A stretch of 39,847 bases of DNA, taken from a virus. The stretch is from IMG/VR virus record IMGVR_UViG_3300031228_000003, positions 1 to 39,847 of that record; one strand, given 5' to 3'. Positions 101-39,078 of this stretch are shown here, piece after piece (the first letter of the stretch is position 1; every line of letters begins with the position of its first letter). The notes beneath the pieces are model-generated. The model saw only the letters and a list, made by a program, of their open reading frames with translations. It made no database searches and was not told the origin of the DNA. The translations under genes and the position numbers were made by a program.

Positions 101-430
101 ATGAGTGCAAAGGAACTTGCAGAAGAATTGGGGACGGCATGGGAACGGGTGGGGAAGGATGCACAAGATGCAGCCGAACGGAGACGGAAACAATTCCGTG
201 ACGGAGTTATCGGGATTGATGAATTCTTATACTTCGCTAAGCGGGGACACAGGGAGGGTGGATACACGGGGGGAACATCGTTCAAGGCGACTAACCATAG
301 ATCAATCATTCTCGAATCCTTGCGCAACAATCCGGACGTTACGGTATCAACGCTACATGACGGGAACGGGAAGGTTGTACGGGTGTCGGTTCGATGGAAT
401 CCAAGGGTCCGGTTATATCTAAGCCCATAA
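101..430 (+). CDS. hypothetical protein (first gene of the rightward early block)
   Basis: This is track ORF 92..430. ATG 101 is preferred because GTG 92 lies inside PAL copy 73..92. The TAA stop at 428..430 lies inside PAL copy 423..440. Confidence 0.6.
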   Translation: MSAKELAEELGTAWERVGKDAQDAAERRRKQFRDGVIGIDEFLYFAKRGHREGGYTGGTSFKATNHRSIILESLRNNPDVTVSTLHDGNGKVVRVSVRWNPRVRLYLSP

Positions 431-440
431 CGTTATGGGC
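423..440. repeat. PAL copy GCCC-ATAACGTTAT-GGGC
   Basis: Exact 18-bp palindrome. It contains the TAA stop of gene 101..430. Confidence 0.9.
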
Positions 441-463
441 TAATCAAATCACACGGGGGAGAT

Positions 464-889
464 ATGTTGGAGGAACTGAGGGACGGTGAATCGCAATGGC
501 TTGATGCACTGTTGATCGGGGGTCGAATTGACCGGGGGGTAGGTGAGCCAAGATTATACAAGGCGGACGGCAAGGTTGTATCGCACAAGGACTTATCAAT
601 CATTCGGATTGATTACCCCGTGATTGCAATAGCCATCCGGATAAGGGCGCACTCCAGAGAGCCGGGTATAGCCGGTCGTTTCAAAACACGCGGGAGAGCT
701 ACACAGACAAAGATTCCCACGAGTAGGACGTACATCATTGGGGCATTGATAAATCGGGGGGAGTATCCCGTGACGATAACCGAGATAATTGATGCACGCG
801 GCATAACGGGGCCGATCGCGGCTTTGACATTGTCGCGGGGAATTGGTGAGACATTGGGTCTAATCGAAGAGTACAGGGATAGATCATGA
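464..889 (+). CDS. hypothetical protein
   Basis: 141-aa ORF. A GGGGGAG Shine-Dalgarno lies 3 nt upstream and a CAAATCACA leader motif lies at 445..453. There is an ATGA overlap with the next ORF. Confidence 0.6.
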   Translation: MLEELRDGESQWLDALLIGGRIDRGVGEPRLYKADGKVVSHKDLSIIRIDYPVIAIAIRIRAHSREPGIAGRFKTRGRATQTKIPTSRTYIIGALINRGEYPVTITEIIDARGITGPIAALTLSRGIGETLGLIEEYRDRS

Positions 890-1104
890 CATACAAAGAG
901 CAACGCGATATGCTATTGAACCTGTTGGGTACGATCACGGAAAACAACGGGGGCGAATTCATCGTATCGATGGGGGAGTATAACAGGTACAAGGAACGCG
1001 CGAAAGCGGATAAACTAACTTTCAAGGTATCGACCCTACTTGATCGGAACATTATCCTTATGGAGTTGGACGATCGATCGTCCTCGGGGGGCGGGGATGA
1101 ATGA
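886..1104 (+). CDS. hypothetical protein
   Basis: 72-aa ORF coupled by ATGA to the upstream gene. It contains the 16-bp palindrome GGACGATCGATCGTCC at 1068..1083. Confidence 0.55.
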   Translation: MTYKEQRDMLLNLLGTITENNGGEFIVSMGEYNRYKERAKADKLTFKVSTLLDRNIILMELDDRSSSGGGDE

Positions 1105-1396
1105 CGAAGGGTTGTTCCCGAAGAATCAAAACGAACTACACATTCGAATTCCATTGAGGGGCGGAAAGCTTTATGTAGTCCGGGAGGATGGCGTGCGGAA
1201 GCTCTGCAAGCAATATGCAATGCAACCCCATAACGCTATAGGTGAACTGCGAAAGCTTGCGGCATGGAACGAAGCGAATCCGAAGAAACGAAAGACCGAG
1301 CGGGGGATACGTCGGCATATACACAGTTGGTTCAGCAAGGTGCAGATAAATAACGCTCCGGTTGATTACCGGACGTCGGGAGGATTTTTTAAATGA
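1097..1396 (+). CDS. hypothetical protein
   Basis: In-frame ATG 1097 of track ORF 1040..1396 overlaps the previous stop (ATGAATGA). The ORF carries a degenerate PAL-like sequence at 1226..1242. Confidence 0.5.
   Translation: MNDEGLFPKNQNELHIRIPLRGGKLYVVREDGVRKLCKQYAMQPHNAIGELRKLAAWNEANPKKRKTERGIRRHIHSWFSKVQINNAPVDYRTSGGFFK
1226..1242. repeat. degenerate PAL-like sequence CCCC-ATAACGCTAT-AGG inside an ORF
   Basis: One core mismatch. It is the only copy well inside a CDS. Confidence 0.4.
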
Positions 1397-2250
1397 GCGA
1401 TAAGACAAATGATCTTGCGGAGATATTCGAGGGTGGTGATAGTATCCGATCGGAGGTCCCTCGATTCTGTGAGCAGTGCAAGCAGCCGTATACGGCAATT
1501 GTCTATCGGGTGCGCTCGACTGAATCGTATGAAACCCTTTGCTCGGATTGCATAGCGAAGAACAGGAAGTGTGAGGGGTGCGGCAACGAATTGGAAATTC
1601 GATACCTGTTCGGTGAAGAGCGGAAGATATGTCCGTCAATACTCTGTGAGGCCGGACATTACCAGAGAGCGGAAGCGCAAAAGGCGCTAACGGATTACAG
1701 GAAGTCAATAGTAACCGACGTATTGCCGGGACTCCGGTACTATGGGGATATAACACCCTCCAGGCTACCGAACCAGACTGCATTCAGGACGGCCGGAAAG
1801 GGGGCTCTAAGCCATTTGATTGCCGGGAGGGGGGTAATCCTCTACGGACCGACTGGAACGGCTAAGACGAGGGTTATGTATTTCGTACTTAAGCGGTTGT
1901 TTGTGGATACGGGACGGAGCGTAAAGGTGTTCGAGGGGTCGGAGTTCGGTAACGCGTCAGCTATAGCGTATGGACCGGACGGCGAAGGGGATCGGTTCGT
2001 TGATCGGCTGACGGGATACGACGTGCTGGCCTTTGATGATTTCGGCAAAGGGGTGCTTACGGAACGCTCGATAGCTACACTGTTTGCAGTGGTAGAAAAA
2101 AGGATGCAGGGATGTAGGCCGATATTCATCACCACGAACGATTCATTCAGCACACTTCGCGCAAAGGTGCGGGGAGAGTCGAGCGATACGACACTGACCC
2201 CGTTGTTCAGACGATTAGAAGAGTTCTGCGAATATATCGAAATGGGGTGA
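1393..2250 (+). CDS. DnaC/IstB-like AAA+ ATPase (putative helicase loader) with N-terminal Cys-rich zinc ribbon
   Basis: P-loop-like ILYGPTGTAKT and Walker B VLAFDDFG are present, and FITTN resembles sensor-1. The N-terminus has CEQC..CSDC..CEGC cysteine pairs. Confidence 0.7.
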   Translation: MSDKTNDLAEIFEGGDSIRSEVPRFCEQCKQPYTAIVYRVRSTESYETLCSDCIAKNRKCEGCGNELEIRYLFGEERKICPSILCEAGHYQRAEAQKALTDYRKSIVTDVLPGLRYYGDITPSRLPNQTAFRTAGKGALSHLIAGRGVILYGPTGTAKTRVMYFVLKRLFVDTGRSVKVFEGSEFGNASAIAYGPDGEGDRFVDRLTGYDVLAFDDFGKGVLTERSIATLFAVVEKRMQGCRPIFITTNDSFSTLRAKVRGESSDTTLTPLFRRLEEFCEYIEMG

Positions 2251-2254
2251 CGCA

Positions 2255-2677
2255 ATGGCCGGACACACCGAACGGATCATCAGGGATGAAGCTTTGAAAG
2301 AGCTGTTGAAAGAAAGGTACAGTGAATTATCCGAGAAGGTGAAGCGAATGGACAACAAAAGAATCACACAGAAAGACGTTGACGAAGCGCAACGTTTATG
2401 GGATCAACGAAAGGCAAAGGAGGATGAGGAACGCAACCGGGAAATAACGAATGAGTTTATCGACGAACTCGTTTCCCGGAGTGTTGAATACAGGGAACGT
2501 CGGGAAGAGTTGAAACGGCAGGAAGAGCGAATGGCAAAAGAATTGAATTCGCTTCGAGTGCTTGCAAGGGAAACGGGTGAACACATTGATCGAATGAACA
2601 AGTTTCAGCAGCAACGTTTCCGCACTCGACTAAACAAGGCCTTGCAGGGAAAGGGATTCGTCCCGGTCAATTGGTAG
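2255..2677 (+). CDS. hypothetical charged coiled-coil protein
   Basis: 140-aa ORF rich in E, K and R. The G of its TAG stop is the first base of PAL copy 2677..2694. Confidence 0.6.
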   Translation: MAGHTERIIRDEALKELLKERYSELSEKVKRMDNKRITQKDVDEAQRLWDQRKAKEDEERNREITNEFIDELVSRSVEYRERREELKRQEERMAKELNSLRVLARETGEHIDRMNKFQQQRFRTRLNKALQGKGFVPVNW

Positions 2678-3096: not shown

Positions 3097-3114
3097 GGGT
3101 ATAACGTTATGGGG
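3097..3114. repeat. PAL copy GGGT-ATAACGTTAT-GGGG
   Basis: Exact core. The arms are not complementary. It ends 5 nt upstream of the methyltransferase ATG. Confidence 0.9.
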
Positions 3115-3118
3115 TGCA

Positions 3119-3850
3119 ATGAATCATATAGATTTATTTAGCGGAATCGGCGGTTTCTCGTTAGCTGCAAAATGGGTATGGGGCGATGAGCACAAGGTTT
3201 GTGCCTTTGTAGAGCGGGACGAATTTTGCAGAAAGGTACTACGCAAACACTGGCCGAATGCTCCGATATTTCCGGACGTCACGTATTTCAACGGGAGGGG
3301 ATACAATGGACAAATCGACTTACTCACGGGGGGGTTCCCCTGTCAACCGTATTCATTCACCGGGAACCGTAGGGGCGCGAAAGACGACCGTGCGCTCTGG
3401 CCGGAGATGTTCAGAATCATTGACGAAGTCCGGCCCCGTTGGGTACTTGCAGAAAATGTGTTTGGGTTCGTTGAAATGGGGCTCGAAGAAACGATACTTA
3501 ACCTGGAGAGTATTGGTTACGAAACGGGGTCGTTCGTTATTCCGGCTGTTTCCGTCGAAGCCGATCACGAAAGAAATAGAATATGGATTGTTGCCTACTC
3601 TGACGCTGAACGACGGACAGAACACAACCCTTCCCCCGTCTATGGTGAATCGCAATGGGTCATTAGTGGGGCATCTTGTACGATTGGGGAAAGGGGGTTG
3701 CTTAAATCCGGAGTGGACGGAGCAGTTTATGGGTTACCCGGTCGGATGGACCGATATAGAATAAAGGCATTGGGTAACGCTATCGTTCCACAGGTAGCCG
3801 CAAACCTATTTGAGTTCATGAAAAAGGTAGATGAAAAGTTCAGGGCATAA
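3119..3850 (+). CDS. DNA (cytosine-5)-methyltransferase, minimal 243-aa form
   Basis: Motif I DLFSGIGG, motif IV GGFPCQPYS, motif VI LAENV, motif VIII-like HERNRIWIVA and motif X GNAIVPQV are all present. ATG 3119 gives the canonical MNHIDLFSGIGG N-terminus. The TAA stop lies inside degenerate PAL 3843..3860. Confidence 0.85.
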   Translation: MNHIDLFSGIGGFSLAAKWVWGDEHKVCAFVERDEFCRKVLRKHWPNAPIFPDVTYFNGRGYNGQIDLLTGGFPCQPYSFTGNRRGAKDDRALWPEMFRIIDEVRPRWVLAENVFGFVEMGLEETILNLESIGYETGSFVIPAVSVEADHERNRIWIVAYSDAERRTEHNPSPVYGESQWVISGASCTIGERGLLKSGVDGAVYGLPGRMDRYRIKALGNAIVPQVAANLFEFMKKVDEKFRA

Positions 3851-3860
3851 CGTTGTAGGC
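3843..3860. repeat. degenerate PAL copy GGGC-ATAACGTTGT-AGGC
   Basis: One core mismatch. It contains the TAA stop of the methyltransferase gene. Confidence 0.7.
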
Positions 3861-4510: not shown

Positions 4511-4849
4511 ATGTTAGAATCCGCCGTCCCCTGTCCGGTCTGCAAATCAACCGGCACGAAACGTATCGGGATTCAGGTTCAGCGCATTGGCCGGAACGAA
4601 ATACACTTCTGTCGGGAGTGTTCCGACCGATACACGACAAAGAAGCGTGCCGCTGGCATATACATTGTCGATCGGGAATTTCGAATTCCGATCCTCCCGA
4701 AATGGTATATCGAAATAATCCGGACCGAGCAGACCAAGACAACCGAGAAGGACCGACGCAAAGCAGAGCGAAAGGAAAAGAAGCTAACCGAGTTCCTGCA
4801 AAAGAAGGGACTTGTTGAACCGAGCGAAACCGAAGCATTCACAGATTAG
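4511..4849 (+). CDS. zinc-ribbon protein with basic C-terminus (possible DNA/RNA-binding regulator)
   Basis: CPVC...CREC cysteine pairs lie in the first 40 aa, followed by a K/R/E-rich tail. The TAG stop abuts PAL 4849..4866. The competing frames 4498..4818 and 4509..4838 look non-coding. Confidence 0.6.
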   Translation: MLESAVPCPVCKSTGTKRIGIQVQRIGRNEIHFCRECSDRYTTKKRAAGIYIVDREFRIPILPKWYIEIIRTEQTKTTEKDRRKAERKEKKLTEFLQKKGLVEPSETEAFTD

Positions 4850-4866
4850 CCCATAACGTTATGGGC
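4849..4866. repeat. PAL copy GCCC-ATAACGTTAT-GGGC
   Basis: Exact. It shares its G with the TAG stop of gene 4511..4849. Confidence 0.9.
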
Positions 4867-4892: not shown

Positions 4893-5201
4893 ATGAGCAA
4901 AACGGCCGTGTTCGTTCCAGGCGAAGCGACGAAAGCATTCAAAGCAATTCGAGATGAACGGGAAAGGCAAAACGAAAAGTGGGGAGTTCAGACCCATTCA
5001 CTTTGCGGGTGGATTGCGGTTCTAACAGAGGAAGTGGGGGAAGCTGCAAGGGAAGCGTTGGATATTGAAATAAACCCTAAGCCGGGAAAACTCGGAGACT
5101 ATAGCGACGCGTTCGAACGATTCAGAAAAGAGATGGTTCAGGTTGCAGCCGTTGCGGTTCAGATACTCGAATACTTGGACCGGGACGAATTACCATTTTA
5201 A
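4893..5201 (+). CDS. MazG-like nucleotide pyrophosphohydrolase (putative)
   Basis: The pattern ERERQNEKWG..H....W..VLTEEVGEAARE ... EMVQVAAVAV matches phage MazG-like/dNTP-PPase domains as I recall them. Confidence 0.5.
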   Translation: MSKTAVFVPGEATKAFKAIRDERERQNEKWGVQTHSLCGWIAVLTEEVGEAAREALDIEINPKPGKLGDYSDAFERFRKEMVQVAAVAVQILEYLDRDELPF

Positions 5202-5218
5202 CCCATAACGTTACGGGG
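5202..5218. repeat. degenerate PAL copy CCC-ATAACGTTAC-GGGG
   Basis: One core mismatch. It starts immediately after the TAA stop of gene 4893..5201. Confidence 0.7.
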
Positions 5219-6395: not shown

Positions 6396-6689
6396 ATGGC
6401 AGACCGATTCGTAAAGATCACCGAAGACACGGGACACGTGAAAAAGGGGGAAGTGTACAAGACTCTTTCCCGTGACCGTTCCAGTGTGGAGATTATCGTA
6501 CATGGAAAGTACAACAGACCGGAAAGGGTATGGATCACGGACAAGCATTTCGAGTATACGGATGACTCGTCGGACGCAATCGATTTACACGATGAACTGT
6601 ATCCTCCGACGCAACAGCCGACCGCACCCGACGAACCGGAGACGACCGAAGCAAAGCCGACCGCAAAGCGAAAGACTGCAAAGAAGTGA
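6396..6689 (+). CDS. hypothetical protein
   Basis: 97-aa ORF with a GGAGA Shine-Dalgarno, followed by tandem PAL copies. Confidence 0.6.
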   Translation: MADRFVKITEDTGHVKKGEVYKTLSRDRSSVEIIVHGKYNRPERVWITDKHFEYTDDSSDAIDLHDELYPPTQQPTAPDEPETTEAKPTAKRKTAKK

Positions 6690-6695: not shown

Positions 6696-6713
6696 CCCCA
6701 TAACGTTATGGGC
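6696..6713. repeat. PAL copy CCCC-ATAACGTTAT-GGGC (first of a tandem pair)
   Basis: It is part of the 24-nt direct repeat ACCCCATAACGTTATGGGCTAACC at 6695..6718 and 6721..6744. Confidence 0.9.
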
Positions 6714-6721: not shown

Positions 6722-6739
6722 CCCCATAACGTTATGGGC
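6722..6739. repeat. PAL copy CCCC-ATAACGTTAT-GGGC (second of a tandem pair)
   Basis: See 6696..6713. Confidence 0.9.
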
Positions 6740-7218: not shown

Positions 7219-7634
7219 GGAACTTCAACATAGCGAAGAGTGACGACGGTTCGTATATCAGGGCCAGCCTACAAACCGGCAATGATCCTACATTCAAAGT
7301 CGAATCATTCTGGTTCCACGTTATGTTAACCGGAGAGAAGGGGACGCGCTCGGAACGTTGGGTATGGACCTTGTACAATGGTCCATACCAGATTGATTCG
7401 GGGAACAGGGGGACGGACTTTGCGGCAATCCGGGAAGCCGTCGAAAGGCTGAAGGTATATATAATAACCTTGTACAACAAGGTAACGGAAACCAATTTCC
7501 AGCTATGGTATACGGAACGGAAGGTAGACCAAAGGCAATTCATCGATTCAATACCAACACCGAACGGGGGAGCGAATGGAGGAGCGGAAACCGACGGAGC
7601 GGACGCAGCAGTTCCAGTGGATACAGAAGTGTGA
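7215..7634 (+). CDS. hypothetical protein
   Basis: 139-aa ORF with an ATGA overlap with the upstream gene. Confidence 0.6.
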   Translation: MRNFNIAKSDDGSYIRASLQTGNDPTFKVESFWFHVMLTGEKGTRSERWVWTLYNGPYQIDSGNRGTDFAAIREAVERLKVYIITLYNKVTETNFQLWYTERKVDQRQFIDSIPTPNGGANGGAETDGADAAVPVDTEV

Positions 7635-7875
7635 TGGAACCTTGTGGATATACAAGGCAGCCGGATACACGATCCGTATAACGTCAGCCACAACAACGTC
7701 ATACAAGTGGCGACTGTATGACGTAACCGGAGAACTGCTGTACATTGACGATGTGAGGATAGAGGGGGAAGCGGAAGACTTGGATGAGGCAAAGCACAAT
7801 TCGGAATACGGATTAATGGGTTACCTTGCTTGGGTCAAGGATCGAATTAGGATGAATAACGGGATAAGCCCATAA
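7576..7875 (+). CDS. hypothetical protein
   Basis: 99-aa ORF with a GGGGGAG Shine-Dalgarno. The TAA stop lies inside PAL 7868..7885. Confidence 0.55.
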   Translation: MEERKPTERTQQFQWIQKCDGTLWIYKAAGYTIRITSATTTSYKWRLYDVTGELLYIDDVRIEGEAEDLDEAKHNSEYGLMGYLAWVKDRIRMNNGISP

Positions 7876-7885
7876 CGTTATGGGC
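7868..7885. repeat. PAL copy GCCC-ATAACGTTAT-GGGC
   Basis: Exact. It contains the TAA stop of gene 7576..7875. Confidence 0.9.
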
Positions 7886-9258: not shown

Positions 9259-9290
9259 TATCGTATGTCCGTTTTCTTGAAGATTTCGAG

Positions 9291-9309
9291 GGGGTATAAC
9301 GTTATGGGC
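9291..9309. repeat. PAL copy GGGGT-ATAACGTTAT-GGGC
   Basis: Exact core, within composite element copy B. Confidence 0.9.
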
Positions 9310-9331
9310 TGATTCTGTGCAAATTTGAGGG
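9310..9331 (-). promoter_or_regulatory. CCCTC-box copy (minus strand CCCTCAAATTTGCACAGAATCA)
   Basis: It lies between PAL copies 9291..9309 and 9329..9346. Confidence 0.6.
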
Positions 9332-9346
9332 TATAACGTTATGGGC
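9329..9346. repeat. PAL copy GGGT-ATAACGTTAT-GGGC
   Basis: Exact core. On the minus strand it abuts the TAG stop of the portal gene. Confidence 0.9.
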
Positions 9347-11073
9347 TATTCGACCTCCGCCACCGCTCCCGCAATCGCTGCAAGGAACTGGCTTTGTATA
9401 ACATCTGATTCCAACTTACCCGTATCGATCATATCGAACGCTTCTGGAGTCAACAGGAATTCCTCTATCTCTTTGGCGGACATTCCCGATAGTCTCTCTT
9501 TGATTGCGTCGACCATAGGCGCAACCGTTGCCGACACTTCCCGTTCGTCAAGTGCAACCCCAAGCACGGTTTCCGTTGCCGCTTGGGGTTGGGTTAATCC
9601 TTCGCCCAATTCAACGGCAAACCGTTTGTTGTCGAGTTGCTTCGGAACATCACCCTCCGGAAGGGTGCGATTAAATCCCGGTCCGGGTGCAACGGGTGCG
9701 GACACTCCGAACGAATCGGCAGGGAACAGGCCGAGTGCATCCGGATAGTCATAACCAAACGCCGTCATTGCCGCATTAATGCAGATGTTCCGGGGAAGCA
9801 TTCCGCTTGCATAAGCTACCTGATACTGGTACAGGGTTGTGAGACCGCCGACGGTAAAGCGTACCTGATTAGACGATATACTCGGAATCTTGAATGAGTC
9901 AATTTCCAGACCGTAGGTCTTCGCGTAATACTCTTTGTTGAAGATTATGCCGTGGTCCTTTGCAAGTCCCGTATCCCGGTTCAGAATGTTTATATCGAAC
10001 TTCTCCTTTTTGCGAAGCTCGATCCATGGAAGTCGCTCCGGTTCGAGTCCGTAGTTCATCACGTTGATATAATTGATCAACGTGAAAAAGAACTGTTCGA
10101 CAAGGCGCGCCCCACTGACTACGATATCCTCCCGAACCTGAACGGCCGTCTCTTGGTCCCCCAATGCTCCCGGCGTTCCGTTCATTGCCCCGTCATGCCC
10201 TAACCATATCTGCGTGATTATACTATCGACGTACTCGATTGCTTCTCTGTAGATAGCGGAGTTCGAACTTGAACCCGTTGACTTGACATCGGCCGATACC
10301 GATTCAGGGAGAACAAGGATACCGTCCTGATACATTTCAAGTACCGTGTTCGCAAGTTCCTGAACCTTACCATCTTCTTCAAAGAACACAGGGTTATACG
10401 TGATCGTAGGCCACGGCATACCATAGCGTTCGGCAAAGAGAAGCCAGAATTCAAGGTTAGTCTTTTTGATCTGAACAGGCCAGTAACACTGTTCCAGATT
10501 TGACTTGCCGTACGGGTTCGTTGCCGTCGGTTGATTGCGGGATATGATAACCTTCATCGGGTGTTCGATCGGTTCGCCCCCGTGGTTATGTATACTCCGG
10601 AATAGCAACTTACCCGTGTCGTCAAAGCCAAACCATTTAGCCGGTTTGAGCGTTGCCGCTACGGGGTCGATACGTCCGGCCGGTCCCCCCTTCCATTCGA
10701 TCTCGTGAACAGCATACCCGTATTGTTTGGCCGTTAGTATCTCTTCAATTAGTTGCATTATCGGGAGCGATTCAATAACAGCCTGAATCTCCGTGAATAT
10801 GTCAACCGGACAATCTCCCGGAATTACGGTAAACTCCCGGCTGGTAACTCCGGCATTGAATGCCTGAATTGCCGCACTTACCTTACCGTCCGATAACAGT
10901 TCATCGTAAACGGTAATATCCCTCCCGATCTTGTTAAGCAGGGTGGAGGGATTCGGCATAATCTTGAGCAGACCGGACAACGCTTGTGCAACGCTCCCGA
11001 AACTACCTCGTGCCGTTCGGGTGTTGATCGTGTCCGGCTTTAATAGTGCCGCTACATTTCCTTTGTGTGCCAT
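9346..11073 (-). CDS. portal protein (Mu gp29 / DUF935-like)
   Basis: 575 aa, placed between the large terminase and the Mu F-like gene. The N-terminal region resembles DUF935 portals. The TAG stop abuts PAL 9329..9346. Confidence 0.8.
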   Translation of the reverse strand: MAHKGNVAALLKPDTINTRTARGSFGSVAQALSGLLKIMPNPSTLLNKIGRDITVYDELLSDGKVSAAIQAFNAGVTSREFTVIPGDCPVDIFTEIQAVIESLPIMQLIEEILTAKQYGYAVHEIEWKGGPAGRIDPVAATLKPAKWFGFDDTGKLLFRSIHNHGGEPIEHPMKVIISRNQPTATNPYGKSNLEQCYWPVQIKKTNLEFWLLFAERYGMPWPTITYNPVFFEEDGKVQELANTVLEMYQDGILVLPESVSADVKSTGSSSNSAIYREAIEYVDSIITQIWLGHDGAMNGTPGALGDQETAVQVREDIVVSGARLVEQFFFTLINYINVMNYGLEPERLPWIELRKKEKFDINILNRDTGLAKDHGIIFNKEYYAKTYGLEIDSFKIPSISSNQVRFTVGGLTTLYQYQVAYASGMLPRNICINAAMTAFGYDYPDALGLFPADSFGVSAPVAPGPGFNRTLPEGDVPKQLDNKRFAVELGEGLTQPQAATETVLGVALDEREVSATVAPMVDAIKERLSGMSAKEIEEFLLTPEAFDMIDTGKLESDVIQSQFLAAIAGAVAEVE

Positions 11074-11074: not shown

Positions 11075-11092
11075 GCCTATAACGTTATGGGT
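11075..11092. repeat. PAL copy GCCT-ATAACGTTAT-GGGT
   Basis: Exact core. It lies between the large terminase stop and the portal start. Confidence 0.9.
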
Positions 11093-12956: not shown

Positions 12957-12974
12957 GCCCATAACGTTATGGGC
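12957..12974. repeat. PAL copy GCCC-ATAACGTTAT-GGGC
   Basis: Exact. It lies in the divergent region between the leftward and rightward late blocks. Confidence 0.9.
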
Positions 12975-14187: not shown

Positions 14188-14205
14188 CCCCATAACGTTA
14201 TGGGC
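14188..14205. repeat. PAL copy CCCC-ATAACGTTAT-GGGC
   Basis: Exact core. It lies between the scaffold and decoration genes. Confidence 0.9.
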
Positions 14206-20917: not shown

Positions 20918-20935
20918 GCCCATAACGTTATAGGG
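20918..20935. repeat. PAL copy GCCC-ATAACGTTAT-AGGG
   Basis: Exact core. Confidence 0.9.
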
Positions 20936-23519: not shown

Positions 23520-23537
23520 CCCCATAACGTTATAGGC
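23520..23537. repeat. PAL copy CCCC-ATAACGTTAT-AGGC
   Basis: Exact core. Confidence 0.9.
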
Positions 23538-23993: not shown

Positions 23994-24010
23994 CCCATAA
24001 CGTTATGGGG
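23993..24010. repeat. PAL copy GCCC-ATAACGTTAT-GGGG
   Basis: Exact core. It shares its G with the TAG stop of gene 23541..23993. Confidence 0.9.
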
Positions 24011-24963: not shown

Positions 24964-25644
24964 ATGACAGACAAACCGAAGAACGCGATTAACATTGAAT
25001 CACCCGACGGGGATACACTCGAAACCCTTGCTACGGCAATTGACGTAACGATGTTCCCGGATCAGGGGCACCCGGACGAAACGACTCCACCCGACGACGT
25101 GGTATTGTCAAGTGAAATTGCAATACCGATAGAGCACCCCGAACGAGGGCCGGAAACATGGGTGTTCAATTGGTCGGAGATTTCCCCGATCCAACATATC
25201 AGAGCAAGCAAACTGCTGTTCTACGAACACGAATTACTTGTGAACCCTCTTCCATCCCATCGACAGAATAAACTATCCGGTCTCTACGAAATTGAGATGG
25301 AAATGTTTTCCGTTCTCCTTCTCCGGAAAAACGAAGATGGGACGTTAGATAGACGGACACCCATGGGGCGGGTTAATCAGGAAGCCGAAGCACTGGAAGC
25401 AATCTATTTGATGAAGGGTTCCGATTACGATAAACTCCGAATCATAAAAAAAAATTTGTGTTTGCTATACGGTGTGCCAAGCGTAGACAGGACATTGGAT
25501 TTCAAAAAATTAACCCGAAGTCTGGCGGGATACATATCAGCTTTCTCTCACCTGAAATTGAGCGAAAGCGATATATCGACCAACTCCGAAACGACGGATA
25601 CGGGACAACATGGAAACGAAGAGCAATCGAACAGGGAGCAATAA
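24964..25644 (+). CDS. tail assembly chaperone (lambda gpG analogue)
   Basis: It is the last gene before the tape measure. It contains the slippery run A AAA AAA, and an overlapping -1 frame is open. Confidence 0.6.
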   Translation: MTDKPKNAINIESPDGDTLETLATAIDVTMFPDQGHPDETTPPDDVVLSSEIAIPIEHPERGPETWVFNWSEISPIQHIRASKLLFYEHELLVNPLPSHRQNKLSGLYEIEMEMFSVLLLRKNEDGTLDRRTPMGRVNQEAEALEAIYLMKGSDYDKLRIIKKNLCLLYGVPSVDRTLDFKKLTRSLAGYISAFSHLKLSESDISTNSETTDTGQHGNEEQSNREQ

Positions 25645-25787
25645 GCGATCCGTTATTGTTCTTCGTTGCACAGGGTGATCCGTCCGTAATCGACACTATC
25701 CGTTATCTACGGATGCCGGATTTTCTCGACACACTCGACACCGTCTGTTCCCTTGTGGGTCAGCGGTTAGCGTCCCGAATGTTTTAG
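24964..25787 (+). CDS. tail assembly chaperone, -1 frameshift fusion product (lambda gpGT analogue)
   Basis: The -1 frame is open from 25434 to TAG 25787. The zero-frame reading ATA AAA AAA AAT at 25444..25455 gives a perfect X XXY YYZ heptamer. The frame offset of track ORF 25458..25787 relative to 24964 is +2, which equals -1. Confidence 0.6.
25446..25454 (+). promoter_or_regulatory. programmed -1 ribosomal frameshift slippery site (A9 run)
   Basis: AAAAAAAAA at 25446..25454 is followed by TTT. A second, weaker site CAAAAAA lies at 25503..25509. Confidence 0.6.
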
Positions 25788-25804
25788 CCCATAACGTTAT
25801 GGGG
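25787..25804. repeat. PAL copy GCCC-ATAACGTTAT-GGGG
   Basis: Exact core. It shares its G with the TAG stop of the frameshift ORF. Confidence 0.9.
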
Positions 25805-25817: not shown

Positions 25818-25835
25818 CCCCATAACGTTATGGGG
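25818..25835. repeat. PAL copy CCCC-ATAACGTTAT-GGGG
   Basis: Exact core. It is linked to the previous copy by the small hairpin GGGGTCG-GACGAT-TCGACCCC. Confidence 0.9.
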
Positions 25836-30268: not shown

Positions 30269-30281
30269 TTAACGACGATAT

Positions 30282-30315
30282 ACACGACGGGGGTTTTCGG
30301 TTTCCTCCGTCGTGT
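30282..30315 (+). terminator. hairpin directly after the tape measure gene
   Basis: ACACGACGGGGG pairs with CCTCCGTCGTGT: 12 bp including one G-T, with a 10-nt T-rich loop. There is no 3' T tract. Confidence 0.5.
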
Positions 30316-30317
30316 CC

Positions 30318-30361
30318 GGGAGGGGGTGGGGTCCGGATGTGCGGTCACCCTACCCCCTCCC
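30318..30361 (+). other. 15-bp G-rich/C-rich hairpin
   Basis: GGGAGGGGGTGGGGT (30318..30332) pairs with ACCCTACCCCCTCCC (30347..30361) with one G-T pair. Confidence 0.6.
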
Positions 30362-30372
30362 CATATCGGTCC

Positions 30373-30386
30373 CCTACGATCGTAGG
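30373..30386. promoter_or_regulatory. operator-like palindrome CCTACGATCGTAGG
   Basis: Perfect 14-bp palindrome. Its core TACGATCGTA recurs at 30689..30698 and 38062..38071. Confidence 0.55.
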
Positions 30387-30403
30387 AAATCCCCGTTTCG
30401 AAA

Positions 30404-30426
30404 CCCTCAAAATTTGCGCAGAATCA
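30404..30426 (+). promoter_or_regulatory. CCCTC-box copy CCCTCAAAATTTGCGCAGAATCA
   Basis: One of four copies of a 23-nt motif. The others are 9310..9331 (minus), 16118..16140 and 35539..35561. Confidence 0.6.
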
Positions 30427-30446
30427 GCCCATAACGTTATACCCCC
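30427..30446. repeat. PAL copy GCCC-ATAACGTTAT-ACCCCC
   Basis: Exact core, within composite element copy A. Confidence 0.9.
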
Positions 30447-30553
30447 TCAAAATCTTGCAGAAAACCGCGATTTCTTGAAGCCACTCGGATAGGGGTAGAC
30501 CCGGAAAATCCCGTCACGGGCTTCTTTGGGGCCCCTAAATTTGGGAAATTTAA

Positions 30554-30573
30554 GGGGGTATAACGTTATGGGG
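30554..30573. repeat. PAL copy GGGGGT-ATAACGTTAT-GGGG
   Basis: Exact core. It has the same form as copy 73..92. Confidence 0.9.
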
Positions 30574-30612
30574 TCTCCCCTCGAAAATTCCTCGGTCTCC
30601 CCTCGAAAATTC
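30572..30612 (+). repeat. tandem direct repeat GGTCTCCCCTCGAAAATTC x2 (22-bp period), iteron-like
   Basis: Identical 19-mers at 30572..30590 and 30594..30612. A degenerate third unit CCCTCGATTTCTCC lies at 30615..30628. Confidence 0.8.
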
Positions 30613-30686
30613 TTCCCTCGATTTCTCCACGGAATCCACGATTCCCGAACTTTTTTTCGATCGCTGTCGATTTTTCTTGCGTGTGT

Positions 30687-30699
30687 CCTACGATCGTAG
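30687..30699. promoter_or_regulatory. operator-like palindrome CCTACGATCGTAG
   Basis: 12-bp palindrome CTACGATCGTAG at 30688..30699, about 70 nt upstream of gene 30771. Confidence 0.55.
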
Positions 30700-30770
30700 T
30701 ACCTTTGTACTAAGTCAGAGCGGGGGACAGTCTCCCGCAAGACCCACAAATCACAATCGGAAATTTTACC

Positions 30771-31897: not shown

Positions 31898-31915
31898 GCC
31901 CATAACGTTATACCC
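31898..31915. repeat. PAL copy GCCC-ATAACGTTAT-ACCC
   Basis: Exact core, preceded by TAG. Confidence 0.9.
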
Positions 31916-31941: not shown

Positions 31942-32229
31942 ATGAAGAACGACATTTTTTGGTCAGCTTCGGCGGGAACGGGTGGGCGAATTACGGACAC
32001 GAGAGTTTACGACACACTGCGGGATGCAAAGAGACTGATTGCAGAGTATGATAATCATGGAGGGGGTGGGTATATCATCCGGCACGAATCGCGAGGGGTT
32101 GAGGGTCATCCCGTGTCCGGCAAGATTGTATATCAAACTCCCGGATATAATTTATCCGGTCACTACGAGATGGAGCGTGATAAGATCGTAGAGAATTGGA
32201 ATCCCGACAAACCCGAACCGACCCCATAA
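31942..32229 (+). CDS. hypothetical protein
   Basis: 95-aa ORF with a GGAGAG Shine-Dalgarno and a CAAATCACA leader at 31919..31927. The TAA stop lies inside degenerate PAL 32222..32239. Confidence 0.55.
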   Translation: MKNDIFWSASAGTGGRITDTRVYDTLRDAKRLIAEYDNHGGGGYIIRHESRGVEGHPVSGKIVYQTPGYNLSGHYEMERDKIVENWNPDKPEPTP

Positions 32230-32239
32230 CGTCATAGGC
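32222..32239. repeat. degenerate PAL copy CCCC-ATAACGTCAT-AGGC
   Basis: One core mismatch. It contains the TAA stop of gene 31942..32229. Confidence 0.7.
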
Positions 32240-32779: not shown

Positions 32780-34177
32780 ATGCCGAAGGCAAAGACCGCA
32801 ACCAAGACCAAATCAACCAAGACAAAAACCGCAAAACCGGAGGGGGGAGAACCGACAACGAAGAAAGATAATTTGACCGACGCACAACGGGGGGCGATGG
32901 AGGAACTGCAATCTATCGGAGCGGAAACCCCGACCCGTAGCAGTGCGGCGCACGGGTACGTAATTCAAATGAATTCCATCGAACCGCAACGGGTGCCACT
33001 GGGAACGATATTCTACCATCCCGGCCGTGATCCGCTAATGACCACCCGAAAAATTACACAGACACGGGTAGGGTTCGATAAGGAGTATGCAGTGGAGGAG
33101 CTGGCCCCGTTTCTCCTGGAAGATCCGAATTTTGACTTCCCGGCAATTCAGATGATATATAATCCGGATACGGGATTGACGTACATAGCCGACGGATTCC
33201 ACCGGCTAACCGCTTACCAGCATGTAGGACGGGAGACAATCCCCGTACGTCTGGCACTTGGAACCGAGGAAGATGCGATTAAGGTGGCGACCGGAGCGAA
33301 TGCAGAACACGGTCGACGTCGCACCCGTCAGGATATACGCAAGGCCGTAACTATGCTTTTGCAGAATCCTGAATTCGCCAAGCGGTCCGATACGTATATA
33401 GCGAATTGCGCTAAGGTGTCGCAGCCTTTCGTCGGCAAGATGAGGAAGGAAATTTTCGGAGACGATACACCGACCGAGCGTATCGGCACGGACGGCAAAA
33501 CGCACAAGGTTAGTACGACTCCGGTCGGATCGAAACCGAGCAAAGCGAAAGAGCCGGACGTAATCGAGACACGACCGGAGAATAAATACATTACCGAAGA
33601 TGCCAACGGGGATATTCTCCCGGACCACCTACAGCGTGTGTTCACGTGCGGCAAAGATGTTGCCGCAAAGGTGAGTGAACTGAAACGGTCGGCAAAGGCA
33701 CTAACGGAAATTGTCTCCGCTTATCAGAGCGAAGACAACGAAGGAACGCTATATGCTCCGATCGTTGACGGAATCGAAACCGCACTCAAGCAGATTAATT
33801 CTGCACTGAACCGGCTGAACCGGGAGTCACTTCCGAAGTACATTTCCCCGTACACGAAGGGACGGGAGAACGAAATGTATCCCGACTCGGAGGAACATCT
33901 TGCACCCGTCGAAGGGTATGAGTATCCGGACGGGACACGGGTAAATATCGGATGGGTTTCCGATACGCAGTATAAGGAATCCCCCGAAGATCTTCGTAAC
34001 GATCCGGATCTATTGCATTACGACTATGATTTCGGAACGGAGGAAGTGGGGGATGAGGAAGCCGACGACGTCGGCACGGTAGAGGAAGGGGAAGAGATTG
34101 AGGTCGAAGCCGATCCGGACCTTATGCAGGATTCCCCGGATGAAGAGGAAGAGCCAGCGATAAACGCATTTGCGTAG
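32780..34177 (+). CDS. ParB-like N-terminal domain protein with acidic C-terminal tail
   Basis: ParB/Srx-type motif YIADGFHRLTAYQHVGRETIPV is followed by ATGANAEHGRRRTRQDIRKAV and an HTH-like segment. The N-terminus is lysine-rich and the C-terminus is strongly acidic. Confidence 0.7.
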   Translation: MPKAKTATKTKSTKTKTAKPEGGEPTTKKDNLTDAQRGAMEELQSIGAETPTRSSAAHGYVIQMNSIEPQRVPLGTIFYHPGRDPLMTTRKITQTRVGFDKEYAVEELAPFLLEDPNFDFPAIQMIYNPDTGLTYIADGFHRLTAYQHVGRETIPVRLALGTEEDAIKVATGANAEHGRRRTRQDIRKAVTMLLQNPEFAKRSDTYIANCAKVSQPFVGKMRKEIFGDDTPTERIGTDGKTHKVSTTPVGSKPSKAKEPDVIETRPENKYITEDANGDILPDHLQRVFTCGKDVAAKVSELKRSAKALTEIVSAYQSEDNEGTLYAPIVDGIETALKQINSALNRLNRESLPKYISPYTKGRENEMYPDSEEHLAPVEGYEYPDGTRVNIGWVSDTQYKESPEDLRNDPDLLHYDYDFGTEEVGDEEADDVGTVEEGEEIEVEADPDLMQDSPDEEEEPAINAFA

Positions 34178-34190: not shown

Positions 34191-34210
34191 AGGGTATAAC
34201 GTTATACCCT
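34191..34210. repeat. PAL copy AGGGT-ATAACGTTAT-ACCCT (20-bp perfect palindrome, arms inverted relative to the majority form)
   Basis: Exact core. Confidence 0.9.
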
Positions 34211-34269: not shown

Positions 34270-35187
34270 ATGGCAACGAAAAAGGCGACGGAACAGACGG
34301 CGAATATTTACGAACGAATTTCCAAGGTGCAAGCGGAGGTTACATCCGTTCCGAAAAAAGGGAGGAACAAACATTTCGGTTACGACTATCACAAAGAGTC
34401 CGATATACTTAACGCAATTCGCGCACCCCTGCAACGGCACGGGGTAGCGGTCACGGTAACCGAGGATAGCGTAAAAATCGAGAACGGGATTCTTTACGGG
34501 ACGATTCAGGTACGTTATACCAACGTGGAGGAACCGGAAGATTTTATTCTCCAGCGTTGGACGTGCGGAGCTTCGACAATTCTTTCAGCCGAAAAGGGGA
34601 CGTTAGACGATAAGGCAACCGCAAAGGCATTTACGGGAGCGGTGAAACAGGCGGTTGCAAAGATGTTCGGCATTACGGACGATGTAGATAACGACCTGGA
34701 TGGGGAAGGGTACGCAAAACAGACGACCCCCGTAGAACCCCGTAGTGAGAATAAAACTACAGGGGGGGTATCCGGACAAGGGGCAGTACATAAAAACACC
34801 GTGACGACCAAGGAAACCGCCAAAAACGGCAATGCTCCGGAGCGATCGGACCCCTATACTCCCGATAAGATAGCGGCACTCATTCAGAAAATCGGGTCGG
34901 ACCCGAAATATTCCGAGTCCGCGAACAAGGATGACGTCTGGAAATTGTACACGGCACTTACGTATCAGGTATTTCCCGGCAAGAAAAACCGGGAGGTCGC
35001 AGAGAATCAAACCCGTCTGTTGATTTACTGCCTGACGGGGCAACGGACAACCGACACATTGACGAAGGGGCATATAGCGGGAATATACAATTGGTTGAAG
35101 TTCGACGGGAAGGATATACCGATAGACAACCCGATAATCAAAGCTGAACTTAGGGCATGCTATGACAAGTGGGAACTCGGAAAGTGA
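34270..35187 (+). CDS. ERF-family single-strand annealing protein
   Basis: IYERISKVQAEVTSVPKKGRNKHFGYDYHKESDILNAIRAPLQRHG parallels P22 Erf FYARLAEIQEHLNAPKNQYNSFGKYKYRSCEDILEGVKPLLKG. AFTGAVKQAVAKMFGITDD parallels ATSSYARKYCLNGLFGIDD. ATG 34270 is chosen because the 34210 start lies inside a PAL copy. Confidence 0.75.
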   Translation: MATKKATEQTANIYERISKVQAEVTSVPKKGRNKHFGYDYHKESDILNAIRAPLQRHGVAVTVTEDSVKIENGILYGTIQVRYTNVEEPEDFILQRWTCGASTILSAEKGTLDDKATAKAFTGAVKQAVAKMFGITDDVDNDLDGEGYAKQTTPVEPRSENKTTGGVSGQGAVHKNTVTTKETAKNGNAPERSDPYTPDKIAALIQKIGSDPKYSESANKDDVWKLYTALTYQVFPGKKNREVAENQTRLLIYCLTGQRTTDTLTKGHIAGIYNWLKFDGKDIPIDNPIIKAELRACYDKWELGK

Positions 35188-35518
35188 CGGACTATACAAC
35201 ACGCAGGATGCAGCCGACATAGTAACCCGGTTAACGCACACAACAGAAACGAGATACGAAGTCGATGCCGAATGGGTACGGGTTGCAGTATCCGGCAAGC
35301 GATACCAGACGACGAAGGGGAGCAAGCGTTATGCATACCAGTGCGTACCCCTCCTTAAAGAGAACCGAGATTACATACGGAAGGGGAGGAAAATATACTT
35401 GACGGTGGAGGGGATAGATAGGATGGTGCGGAAACGGTCGGAGCAATTATCCGCATTCCGTGCCGGTCGGAAACCATCACGGGGACGATACCGACGAGTA
35501 CAGGACGGGGACGAGTAG
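35162..35518 (+). CDS. hypothetical basic protein (possible HTH DNA-binding)
   Basis: 118-aa ORF with a 26-nt overlap with the ERF gene. The TAG stop abuts PAL 35518..35535. Confidence 0.5.
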   Translation: MTSGNSESDGLYNTQDAADIVTRLTHTTETRYEVDAEWVRVAVSGKRYQTTKGSKRYAYQCVPLLKENRDYIRKGRKIYLTVEGIDRMVRKRSEQLSAFRAGRKPSRGRYRRVQDGDE

Positions 35519-35535
35519 CCCATAACGTTATGGGC
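35518..35535. repeat. PAL copy GCCC-ATAACGTTAT-GGGC
   Basis: Exact. It shares its G with the TAG stop of gene 35162..35518. Confidence 0.9.
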
Positions 35536-35538: not shown

Positions 35539-35561
35539 CCCTCGAAATTTCAACAGAATCA
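35539..35561 (+). promoter_or_regulatory. CCCTC-box copy CCCTCGAAATTTCAACAGAATCA
   Basis: It follows PAL 35518..35535 and lies upstream of gene 35578. Confidence 0.55.
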
Positions 35562-38058: not shown

Positions 38059-38087
38059 TTGTACGATCGTAGTAATTAACGTATATT
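38059..38087 (+). promoter_or_regulatory. sigma70-like promoter candidate overlapping an operator-like palindrome
   Basis: TTGTAC (38059..38064), a 17-nt spacer, then TATATT (38082..38087). The palindrome TACGATCGTA at 38062..38071 overlaps the -35 element and spacer. Confidence 0.4.
38061..38074. promoter_or_regulatory. operator-like palindrome copy (GTACGATCGTAGTA)
   Basis: It shares the 13-mer TACGATCGTAGTA with 30689..30701. Confidence 0.5.
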
Positions 38088-38098
38088 GGGGTTTGGAA

Positions 38099-38395
38099 AT
38101 GGCAAATACATTTCACGTCGGGATATTGAACGCGGATGGGTTTCAAGGGGTAGGTGAGAACCTAAAGTTAGCGTGGGCGGATTACGAGCCAGATAATCCC
38201 GGCGTACTATACTTAACAGAGATTACCGGTCGGAAACATTTGAACCTGATCTTGTCGGGTGCGTATTCGAATCGGGGGTTCTGGACTCGCCTTACTCCGG
38301 AAGCTGCAACCGAAGCGTATCGGGATGGTCGATACGACGACCGGTTTATATGGGACGATGAAACGCAATCAATCGGACTGAATGATACACGGTGA
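38099..38395 (+). CDS. hypothetical protein
   Basis: In-frame ATG 38099 (MANTFHVG) of track ORF 38009..38395. The longer start would overlap the helicase gene. Confidence 0.55.
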   Translation: MANTFHVGILNADGFQGVGENLKLAWADYEPDNPGVLYLTEITGRKHLNLILSGAYSNRGFWTRLTPEAATEAYRDGRYDDRFIWDDETQSIGLNDTR

Positions 38396-38403
38396 AAAAT
38401 TAT

Positions 38404-38652
38404 ATGCACATAGTTGACGAGTCCGAACTACGGGACGTGGCGACCCGGTTAGTGAAAGAGGCCGGGGGGGTTCGCCTTGCAGGTAAGCAGACGGGTTACG
38501 CAACGAACACAATATACAACGCACTGAACCCGGCTAACGAAGTGTCGCGACACAGAGCAATTCTGATAAACCTGATTGCGTACCTGACACGGGGAAGCGT
38601 TTCCACACAGTACGCAATCCGGACAACTGAATCGAGCCTTAAGGTTCGATAG
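38404..38652 (+). CDS. putative HTH DNA-binding protein
   Basis: ATG 38404 follows GGTGA (GTG 38392 is an alternative start). AGKQTGYATNTIYNAL is HTH-like. The TAG stop abuts PAL 38652..38669. Confidence 0.5.
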   Translation: MHIVDESELRDVATRLVKEAGGVRLAGKQTGYATNTIYNALNPANEVSRHRAILINLIAYLTRGSVSTQYAIRTTESSLKVR

Positions 38653-38669
38653 CCCATAACGTTATGGGG
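38652..38669. repeat. PAL copy GCCC-ATAACGTTAT-GGGG
   Basis: Exact core. It shares its G with the TAG stop of gene 38404..38652. Confidence 0.9.
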
Positions 38670-38694
38670 TCAAACACAAATCACGGGAGAGAAG

Positions 38695-39078
38695 ATGAAA
38701 GAGAAACGGAAGATCGAAAAGCGAGATATGGTAGTTGCCGTATTCAGTCATTTCGGTTTAGATACAAACACGACGTCATTTGATCCAAGCGGACGGGATG
38801 CAGATAGGGCAATTGATGGATTGCGGACGATTGCGGAAAAGTACGGTCTGGAATTGCGCTTTGATCGGGAGAAGCAGCCTATGATCTGCGCAGGTGAAAC
38901 CATCTTGTTCGATCCGGACGAAGCGGAATTACCGGGGGATCGGGACACAGAGGAAGAACCGCTATACATTACCGAGCGTGGAGAGGTTGCGATAAAACCG
39001 AATTACTCTGCGCGGTTGACAATCGAAGCGGGTCCCGACGGAGACGACGAAACGATTCTAAGGATCGTAAGGGCATAA
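38695..39078 (+). CDS. hypothetical acidic protein
   Basis: 127-aa ORF with a GGGAGAG Shine-Dalgarno. The TAA stop lies inside PAL 39071..39088. Confidence 0.55.
   Translation: MKEKRKIEKRDMVVAVFSHFGLDTNTTSFDPSGRDADRAIDGLRTIAEKYGLELRFDREKQPMICAGETILFDPDEAELPGDRDTEEEPLYITERGEVAIKPNYSARLTIEAGPDGDDETILRIVRA

Follow-up and report, generated by a model that had tools for sequence, protein, structure and literature searches.

A stop-codon-sharing palindrome dispersed through a phage genome may be a ParB-type protein-binding site that matches palindromes in plasmid parB genes

We analyzed a stretch of viral DNA of 39,847 nucleotides (nt), IMG/VR record IMGVR_UViG_3300031228_000003 from position 1 to 39,847 (hereafter the window), in which a short palindrome, here called PAL, recurs between genes and supplies or touches the stop codons of 16 of them. 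The reading that we favor, and that we consider probable rather than settled, is that PAL is a genome-wide DNA site for a ParB-type protein that lies first in each intergenic gap and whose A/G flank and internal TAA have been co-opted as stop codons. The contact of PAL with stop codons looks like a side effect of packing rather than a device acting on translation termination.

The window holds a circularly closed genome of 39,720 base pairs (bp), bases 1-127 being identical to bases 39721-39847 (an exact 127-bp terminal overlap), and owing to this overlap the PAL copies at 75 and 39795 are one site. The PAL core, ATAACGTTAT, occurs exactly 30 times in the window, or 29 times once the overlap is taken into account, and three further copies with one core mismatch and G/C arms bring the total to 32 sites per 39,720 bp, a density of one site per 1.2 kb. 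The 18-mer has 25 matches at three or fewer mismatches, compared to an expectation of 0.02. A position matrix yielded the 20-bp consensus A-SSSY-ATAACGTTAT-RSSS-T, with the flanking A and the flanking T each found in 29 of 32 copies and no conservation outside the 20 bp. PAL is a dyad-symmetric site of the 14-20 bp class that is kept as sequence: its core is invariant in 29 of the 32 copies, while its half-site arms are distributed over GCCC (27), CCCC (15), GGGT (10), GCCT (4), GGGC (3), CCCT (3) and ACCC (2).

All PAL sites lie outside coding sequence or inside the last 8 nt of a gene, and about half of the gene junctions carry one. A first-pass annotation of the window had listed 16 genes whose stop codons are supplied or touched by PAL; all 16 ends do overlap or abut the element, and the coordinates were right throughout. 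With the flanking A numbered as position 0 (A0) and the outermost base of the 18-mer as position 1 (G1 where it is a G), the copies in contact with a stop are the following.

423-440: perfect 18-mer; its internal TAA ends gene 101-430 (last residues SP)
2677-2694: perfect copy; gene 2255-2677 ends in TAG, with G1 as its third base
3843-3860: one core mismatch, GGGC/AGGC arms; the C5 methylase gene 3119-3850 ends on its TAA (last residues RA)
4849-4866: perfect copy; the TAG of gene 4511-4849 ends on G1
5201-5218: variant ACCC..GGGG; its first base is the end of the TAA of gene 4893-5201
7868-7885: perfect copy; TAA ends gene 7576-7875 (last residues SP)
9329-9346: GGGT..GGGC; the portal gene 9346-11073 (minus strand) ends in TAG, the G of which pairs with PAL base 18
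16097-16114: perfect copy; the TAG of gene 15870-16097 ends on G1
18473-18490: CCCT..ACCC, cannot fold; TAA ends the GH19 lysin gene 17374-18480 (last residues TL), and the next ATG lies 2 nt after PAL
20430-20447: perfect copy; abutted by the TAA of gene 19731-20429
23993-24010: GCCC..GGGG; the TAG of gene 23541-23993 ends on G1
25787-25804: GCCC..GGGG; the TAG of the -1 open reading frame (ORF) 25434-25787, a putative G-T chaperone extension, ends on G1
32222-32239: one core mismatch; TAA ends gene 31942-32229 (last residues TP)
35518-35535: perfect copy; the TAG of gene 35162-35518 ends on G1
38652-38669: GCCC..GGGG; the TAG of gene 38392-38652 ends on G1
39071-39088: GGGC..GGGG, cannot fold; TAA ends gene 38695-39078 (last residues RA)

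Six genes (ending at 430, 3850, 7875, 18480, 32229 and 39078) stop on the internal TAA at PAL positions 6-8, and positions 0-5 form their last two codons, which gives the element-encoded dipeptides SP, RA, SP, TL, TP and RA that had been proposed. Eight TAG stops share the outermost G of PAL, seven of them at 2677, 4849, 16097, 23993, 25787, 35518 and 38652 and the eighth in the minus-strand portal gene at 9346, and two TAA stops, at 5201 and 20429, abut the element, the former overlapping it by one base. One correction applies to this description: the 18-mer itself contains a stop (TAA) in only one frame per strand, and in the TAG cases an ordinary stop codon overlaps the 20-bp element A-N18-T at A0 and G1. 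A T is found at position -1 in 12 of the 32 copies, and 8 of these 12 are TAG stops. Four more stops lie 3-6 nt from PAL copies, at 6696, 20918, 23520 and 11075 (minus strand). Gene starts in the window are heuristic, while gene ends were confirmed independently, in that a separate gene caller (public collection, source contig) agreed on the end of 15 of the 16 and left only the ORF ending at 25787 uncalled.

PAL-stop distances were compared with random placement, a check that the first-pass annotation had proposed, by applying two analytic null models to the 23 gene ends that face a PAL. Contact exceeded random placement, with 16 contacts observed compared to 3-12 expected and P values from 1e-10 to 0.04, which depend on how much of each gap counts as free. 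Under uniform placement, with nine touching offsets (-8 to 0) and 0-12 nt reserved for the ribosome-binding site, 8.1-12.0 contacts were expected (P = 4e-4 to 0.04); when only frame-viable offsets were allowed and 0-20 nt were reserved, 3.3-9.8 were expected (P = 1e-10 to 3e-4). Stop-codon choice provides evidence independent of both placement nulls. The touching ends use TAA eight times, TAG eight times and TGA never, and the other 42 ends comprise 23 TAA, 15 TGA and 4 TAG, such that TAG is enriched at touching ends (8/16 vs 4/42, Fisher P = 0.0018). This enrichment and the lack of TGA are as expected if the stops are constrained by A0 and G1 of the element. At the minimal offset in each frame, the stop ends on A0 (TAA or TGA), ends on G1 (TAG) or is the internal TAA, and 16 of 22 observed ends fall precisely at one of these offsets. 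A pure coincidence of short gaps, with no association between PAL and stops, can point to the P value of only 0.04 under the most generous null (nine offsets, 12 nt reserved), but we consider it highly improbable given the P values of the frame-viable null, the TAG enrichment and the finding that PAL comes first in the gap even where 40-135 nt follow downstream of it. Taken together, the placement excess and the stop-codon skew indicate that the association between PAL and stops is real and that PAL is left-justified against the upstream gene.

The order at junctions is always stop, PAL, other signals and start. On the 3' side of PAL there is an A/C-rich leader of the AAATCACA type and a Shine-Dalgarno sequence, which occupy 23-33 nt in all and leave little slack; where the sequence 3' of PAL is longer, it holds a second motif, motif 2 (CCCTCRAAATTT), a second PAL, or the terminator at 20475-20501, the sole convincing one. 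The leader motif (T)AATCAAATCACA is found a few nt 5' of the Shine-Dalgarno sequence at junctions with and without PAL. PAL also approaches start codons, the distance being 1, 2, 3 and 4 nt at 11075, 18473, 23520 and 3097, respectively, and at these start-adjacent copies its G-rich right arm occupies the Shine-Dalgarno position. Since PAL is pressed against starts as well as stops, base sharing is not specific to termination. Copies are likewise present where no gene ends, namely in the divergent region at 12957, in a non-coding region at 30427 and 30556, and at position 75. The copies that do not touch a stop are the following.

75-92: GGGT..GGGG, cannot fold; followed after 8 nt by the ATG at 101; the terminal overlap repeats it at 39795-39812
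3097-3114: GGGT..GGGG; 4 nt before the methylase ATG at 3119
6696-6713 and 6722-6739: two copies, the first 6 nt after the stop of gene 6396-6689
9292-9309: second copy at the portal/Mu-F junction
11075-11092: between the terminase and portal genes (minus strand), 5 nt past the stop of the former and 1 nt short of the ATG of the latter
12957-12974: perfect copy in a divergent intergenic region; no gene end there
14188-14205: midway between a stop and a start, 30 nt from each
16141-16158: GGGC..AGGG, cannot fold; followed after 10 nt by the ATG at 16169
20918-20935: 6 nt after the stop at 20911
23520-23537: flanked at a distance of 3 nt by the stop at 23516 and by the ATG at 23541
25818-25835: second copy before the tape-measure gene
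30427-30444 and 30556-30573: two copies, neither of which folds, in the ~500-bp non-coding region 30269-30770
31898-31915: GCCC..ACCC, cannot fold; followed after 26 nt by the ATG at 31942
34192-34209: GGGT..ACCC; the ParB-like gene stops 14 nt upstream

Several other signals were observed around these junctions. Genes with the (T)AATCAAATCACA leader include those at 464, 3874, 30771, 31156, 31942, 32375, 34270, 35578 and 38695. Motif 2, CCCTCRAAA(A)TTT(GC), always adjoins PAL (9279-9330 on the minus strand, 16118-16131, 30404-30417, 30444-30457, 30578-30614 and 35539-35552) and often forms TTGCNN-N18-TATRSS arrangements with it; motif 2 alone is not clearly above chance, with seven matches compared to 3.7 expected. 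The non-coding region 30269-30770, ~500 bp long, follows the tape-measure gene and contains about four motif-2 copies beside its two non-folding PAL copies; a role as regulatory hub, origin or packaging region is conceivable. The sole strong intrinsic terminator of the genome, at 20475-20501, consists of an 11-bp stem followed by TTTT and lies 3' of both gene 19731-20429 and the PAL at 20430.

PAL could alternatively act at the RNA level, as a 9-bp hairpin (-12 kcal/mol) at cistron ends that protects 3' ends, marks processing or modulates termination or ribosome release. We regard this possibility as unlikely, although it has several observations on its side: the canonical copy folds at -12.3 kcal/mol (z = -4.6), PAL always comes first after the stop, and conventional intrinsic terminators are not enriched. 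Two further observations also count against the favored reading, namely that seven of the eight perfect, hairpin-competent 18-mers touch a stop and that touching copies fold somewhat better than the rest (mean -7.2 vs -4.2 kcal/mol, Mann-Whitney P = 0.04), a correlation that arises partly by construction through the G1 requirement of the TAG class; the hairpin-competent subset may therefore have a role in RNA. However, 10-11 of the 32 copies, with non-complementary arms such as GGGT..GGGG and GCCC..ACCC, fold at ~0 kcal/mol and nonetheless have an invariant core, and the arm changes (GCCC, CCCC, GGGT, GGGC, CCCT) are non-compensatory, with pairing not conserved across copies. That the core is kept in copies without a hairpin and that arm changes do not compensate is evidence for a DNA site rather than an RNA one. 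Also against an RNA element, PAL is followed by T and then by the A/C-rich leader rather than by a U-tract, its stem is too short for RNase III, no PAL was among the matches of an intrinsic-terminator scan, and copies occur in the divergent promoter region and in non-coding DNA.

The first-pass annotation had proposed that PAL acts on ribosome or mRNA events at gene ends, and its position 1-4 nt from start codons at four junctions argues against this proposal as well. Liang, Rudd and Deutscher (Mol Cell 2015) are said to have reported that the repetitive extragenic palindromic (REP) elements of E. coli lie a few nt from stops and can affect termination or mRNA fate. REP elements are conserved as hairpins with compensatory variation, whereas a third of the PAL copies cannot pair. 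As a separate candidate, PAL was considered as a sigma-70 -10 element and rejected, since its TATAAC lacks the final T and its spacing to starts is inconsistent; neither the promoter scan nor the terminator scan gave enrichment.

A search for portal homologues identified a single informative relative, L096, a 9.6-kb contig with a portal protein 41% identical to that of the window. L096 carries a variant palindrome, CCATAATATTATAG, at three junctions that are syntenic with PAL junctions, its center being AATATT where PAL has AACGTT (CG to TA). This variant is found 6-8 nt after stops and 4 nt before starts, cannot fold and overlaps no stop, which again counts against ribosome or mRNA action and against an RNA element. 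Because the L096 palindromes occupy syntenic junctions and none lies on a stop, the element family and its positions are conserved, while stop contact is not. Separately, copies of the L096 variant in the form YCATAATATTATAGA, at 3947, 7573 and 8897 (and at 4339 inside a gene), lie 4 nt before an ATG that has no Shine-Dalgarno sequence, and this form has TATAAT-like hexamers on both strands; it could serve there as a promoter for leaderless transcripts. Among other sources of comparison, IMG/VR relatives at 27% identity had no repeated palindrome, relatives of the ParB-like protein described below (L097-L100, of high G+C) had no palindrome array, a scan of IMG/VR for the 18-mer found none, and a near-identity DNA search of phage records gave no match for the window; no close DNA relative turned up in either collection. 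A contig from a second sample (SRR9005027) is 100% identical to the window and offers no microevolution to exploit.

The same comparison bears on the two remaining mechanisms of the first-pass annotation, in which PAL is a joint for cassette recombination or inserts at gene ends and truncates ORFs. A mobile or recombinogenic mini-element of either kind would fit the many PAL copies at module boundaries and the element-encoded C-terminal dipeptides, and very small mobile repeats have reportedly been described in cyanobacteria (Elhai et al. 2008). There is no evidence for recombination joints, however, and the genes flanking PAL-type junctions are syntenic in the relative. Insertion is contradicted where it can be tested: the small C5 methylase (3119-3850), whose stop lies within PAL, is complete through motif X (GNAIVP), and the portal proteins of the window and L096 end no more than two residues apart, which shows no truncation in the comparison of orthologous C-termini. 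PAL has no target-site duplications, its flanks consisting of A and T only; in plasmid parB genes the site keeps both its position and its reading frame (see below); and the analogous repeats of Cluster O mycobacteriophages have no part in indels (PMC4351075). We therefore consider a mini-element very unlikely. Of the earlier interpretation, the element-encoded stops and dipeptides of six genes and the contact above random hold, while its premise fails and its three mechanisms are not favored.

Sequences from outside phages bear on what PAL might be. The exact 18-mer was found at 20 genome loci and 75 metagenome loci, none of which resembles the phage. In 15 of the 20 genome matches (with ~9 matches expected by chance in 596 Gb), and in at least 40 full-length ORFs overall, the 18-mer lies within a ParB gene that reads it in frame as AHNVMG. 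The proteins are genuine ParBs with ParB_N and HTH_ParB domains and are encoded next to ParA, and their family is present on 282 plasmids of Thermus, Deinococcus and cyanobacteria, including ParBm of pTT27. Identical 18-mers are found in, among others, T. scotoductus and Leptolyngbya, with close variants in T. brockianus and Chroococcidiopsis. To remove the bias of an exact-sequence search, 12 more homologues were taken by protein similarity alone, and 13 of 14 homologues have a 14-24 bp AACGTT-centered palindrome at the same alignment position, coding for xxNVxx. The arms of these palindromes differ by lineage and change symmetrically (e.g. CCCATAACGTTATGGG, CCCAAAACGTTTTGGG, CCCACAACGTTGTGGG, GGGAAACGTTTCCC, GGATAACGTTATCC and ACTAATAACGTTATTAGT). 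Symmetric covariation of the arms at a fixed position is the signature of a site for a co-evolving dimeric DNA-binding protein. The Scytonema ParB locus further contains six tandem in-frame copies of the palindrome and a seventh just 3' of parB, which looks like a centromere array written into coding sequence. From the covariation and the arrays, we infer that the AACGTT palindromes of parB genes are parS-like sites, and a parS inside parB has a precedent on pTT27 (PMC4409726, PMC10085754). The behavior of the same sequence as a DNA site inside parB genes is a further argument against an RNA-level role for PAL.

Some additional features of these loci were recorded. In copies of the Scytonema type (L008, 240-1010; L020, 2070-2825), the palindromes read as THNVMG and NNVIG repeats in a linker, and the seventh lies ~50 nt after the gene. 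The AACGTT palindrome of pTT27 parBm (L108) is TAGGGACAACGTTGTTCCTA, with similar palindromes in the parB genes of L109 and L111-L119 (Thermus, cyanobacteria). Metagenome contigs of the Ga01631xx series (L026, L035, L043, L045, L050, L051, L054, L065, L081 and L085) carry exact PAL pairs 380-520 bp apart that flank paralogous ~120-aa genes ending in ..QPGN on a mobile element; PAL there is the center of a longer inverted repeat, GAGAGTAAGT-PAL-AAACTCTC, ~20 nt after the stop. A 340-aa protein of the Antarctic-mat contig L081 appeared ParB-like by eye and was set aside, as it is not detectably ParB. In the window itself, a decayed PAL, CCCCATAACGCTATAGGT, is found at 1226-1243 inside ORF 1097-1396, in the frame used in parB genes (PHNAIG). 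A literature search for the PAL core sequence returned nothing relevant.

The window encodes one candidate for a PAL-binding protein.

32780-34177, plus strand: ParB/KorB/Noc-fold protein of 465 aa, candidate PAL binder; helix-turn-helix-like segment, acidic tail, DGFHR

This protein matches the PHROG 1033 family, "ParB-like partition protein" (E = 4e-7), and sulfiredoxin (E = 4e-3). The best Foldseek matches of its predicted structure are ParB (ParB-parS), KorB and Noc, over ~156 columns, and its N-domain aligned with the plasmid ParB N-domain at a probability of 90% in hhalign. The gene also has a PAL 14 nt after its stop. Direct phmmer and BLASTP comparisons of phage proteins with plasmid ParBs gave nothing significant, and ParB_N went undetected in a Pfam search of the protein. 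No window gene matches the ParA/CbiA family. Since it has neither ParA nor a GERR box, the phage system is not a canonical ParABS.

Comparison with known systems places PAL between several of them. The plasmid parB palindromes (PMC4409726, PMC10085754) are, like PAL, dyad-symmetric and AACGTT-centered and form arrays in or next to parB; they differ in lying in coding DNA with the open frame AHNVMG, at 1-7 copies per replicon and with a ParA partner, whereas the phage has 32, all intergenic, and no ParA. In its mode of action, PAL would be most like the KorB-OB system of plasmid RK2, which likewise pairs a ParB-fold protein with palindromic operators scattered across a mobile genome, many of them intergenic (PMC11790492). 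KorB exerts global gene control (PMC11790492), and KorB structures are among the best fold matches of the phage protein. KorB is a clamp dependent on cytidine triphosphate (CTP) that works with KorA, whereas the CTP-binding GERRxR is replaced by DGFHR in the phage protein and a counterpart of KorA is not known here. There are 12 OB sites in RK2. In appearance, PAL seems most like the 17-bp dyad repeats of Cluster O mycobacteriophages, which have more than 30 such repeats, a protein with a ParB-like domain, and neither integrase nor ParA (PMC4351075). The function of the Cluster O repeat is unexplained, although it is predicted to bind a dimeric protein. Its sequence, TGTTCGGNNNCCGAACA, differs from that of PAL, about a third of its sites lie well inside genes, and neither sharing of stop codons nor a link to plasmid parS is reported for it (PMC4351075).

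The stoperators of Cluster A mycobacteriophages (L5 gp71) are likewise 20-30 repressor sites in the short intergenic spaces of a compact phage genome (PMC9283540). The first-pass annotation had argued that precise phasing with termination is not expected for a simple operator, a premise that does not hold in light of this documented case. PAL could by analogy be an operator or stoperator bound by a phage regulator of a kind other than ParB, such as one of the many small unannotated proteins, with control of initiation at promoter-proximal copies and a block to elongation at intergenic ones. The more than 30 sites in short spaces, the dyad symmetry and the overlap of some copies with motif-2/TTGC-N18-TATA arrangements would suit such a role. 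Nevertheless, stoperators are asymmetric 13-mers that are bound by a monomer and oriented with transcription, while PAL is symmetric; no repressor or integrase was found in the window; and the identity of PAL with the parB-gene palindromes would go unexplained. We thus think that such a regulator is quite unlikely.

A dispersed ParB-type site accommodates these observations in the following way. The 20-bp dyad A-SSSY-ATAACGTTAT-RSSS-T would be recognized as duplex DNA by a dimeric ParB-type protein, for which the candidates are the phage protein 32780-34177 and a host plasmid ParB. PAL would always come first behind the upstream gene, with the leader and Shine-Dalgarno sequence of the following gene beyond it. 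Its TAA would be available in one frame per strand, and the near-invariant flanking A followed by G1 could complete TAG or TAA in the other frames; through loss of spacer, 16 genes would then have come to draw their stop wholly or partly from the element, and six of them their last two codons as well. On this reading, the phasing with stops is a consequence of packing and not a termination mechanism. As for what binding does, a ParB-family protein, either the ParA-less and GERR-less phage version or a hijacked or titrated plasmid ParB, might load along the whole PAL-studded phage chromosome, an idea that we put forward tentatively and rate below the favored reading itself. By analogy with KorB, genome-wide loading for transcriptional control or for DNA organization are both possibilities.

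Several observations weigh against this reading. Left-justification is still significant when 20 nt are reserved for the leader (P = 3e-4), which suggests that packing may account for only a part of it. Several gaps without PAL measure 50-100 nt, and the genome is accordingly less compact than it could be. The model of the phage ParB-like protein is of low confidence, with a predicted local distance difference test score (pLDDT) of 49 overall and ~70 over residues 100-230, only the N-domain of the protein aligns with plasmid ParBs, and the protein is without the CTP-binding GERRxR box, its DGFHR aligning with GERRYR. Finally, the published parS of pTT27, which has been tested, is a different 14-mer, AAGGACGCGTCCTT, at nt 657 of parBm, a position other than that of the PAL-like AACGTT palindrome.

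What is new here is the exact link between a phage repeat and the palindromes of plasmid parB genes, together with the extent to which a repeat shares bases with stops. Genome-wide dyad repeats are unexplained in several phage groups, and through the identity of PAL, the covariation of its plasmid counterparts and the ParB-fold protein of the phage, one such repeat acquires a specific binding hypothesis. If a ParB-family protein does load along the phage chromosome, a virus would have KorB-like control or organization of its whole genome, and an explanation would be on offer for repeats of the Cluster O type. The positionally conserved AACGTT palindrome in parB of Thermus, Deinococcus and cyanobacterial plasmids, pTT27 included, becomes a candidate centromere. 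For annotation, the TAG enrichment and the lack of TGA illustrate that an overlapping DNA site can dictate stops and terminal dipeptides without a translational mechanism.

The remaining content of the window is that of a compact phage, with a G+C content of 50.8% and ~90% of the genome coding. It encodes Mu-type head genes (portal, Mu-F, gpS-like, a PBSX-type terminase and an E-type capsid protein), a tape-measure protein and a GH19 lysin, as well as a replication and recombination set composed of an ERF recombinase, a DEAD helicase, a DnaC-like loader and a helix-turn-helix replication initiator. No integrase, repressor, ParA or RNA polymerase was detected among the window genes, and no HIP1 sites or tRNAs that would point to a host were found in the window.

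CCWGG is strongly avoided in the genome, with 6 sites compared to 80 expected, GGATCC is absent, CTGCAG occurs three times and CCGG is enriched twofold. AACGTT is present at 53 sites compared to 9 expected, due to PAL. The center of PAL contains a CpG, and the phage carries the compact C5 methylase at 3119-3850.

In tail modules, the programmed frameshift of the G/G-T tail chaperone usually sits just upstream of the tape-measure gene. In the window, an A AAA AAA heptamer at 25446-25452 lies within gene 24964-25644, and a -1 frame opens at 25434 and runs to 25787, before the tape-measure gene. ORF 25434-25787, the TAG of which ends on G1 of a PAL, is thus probably the -1 frameshift arm of the tail chaperone.

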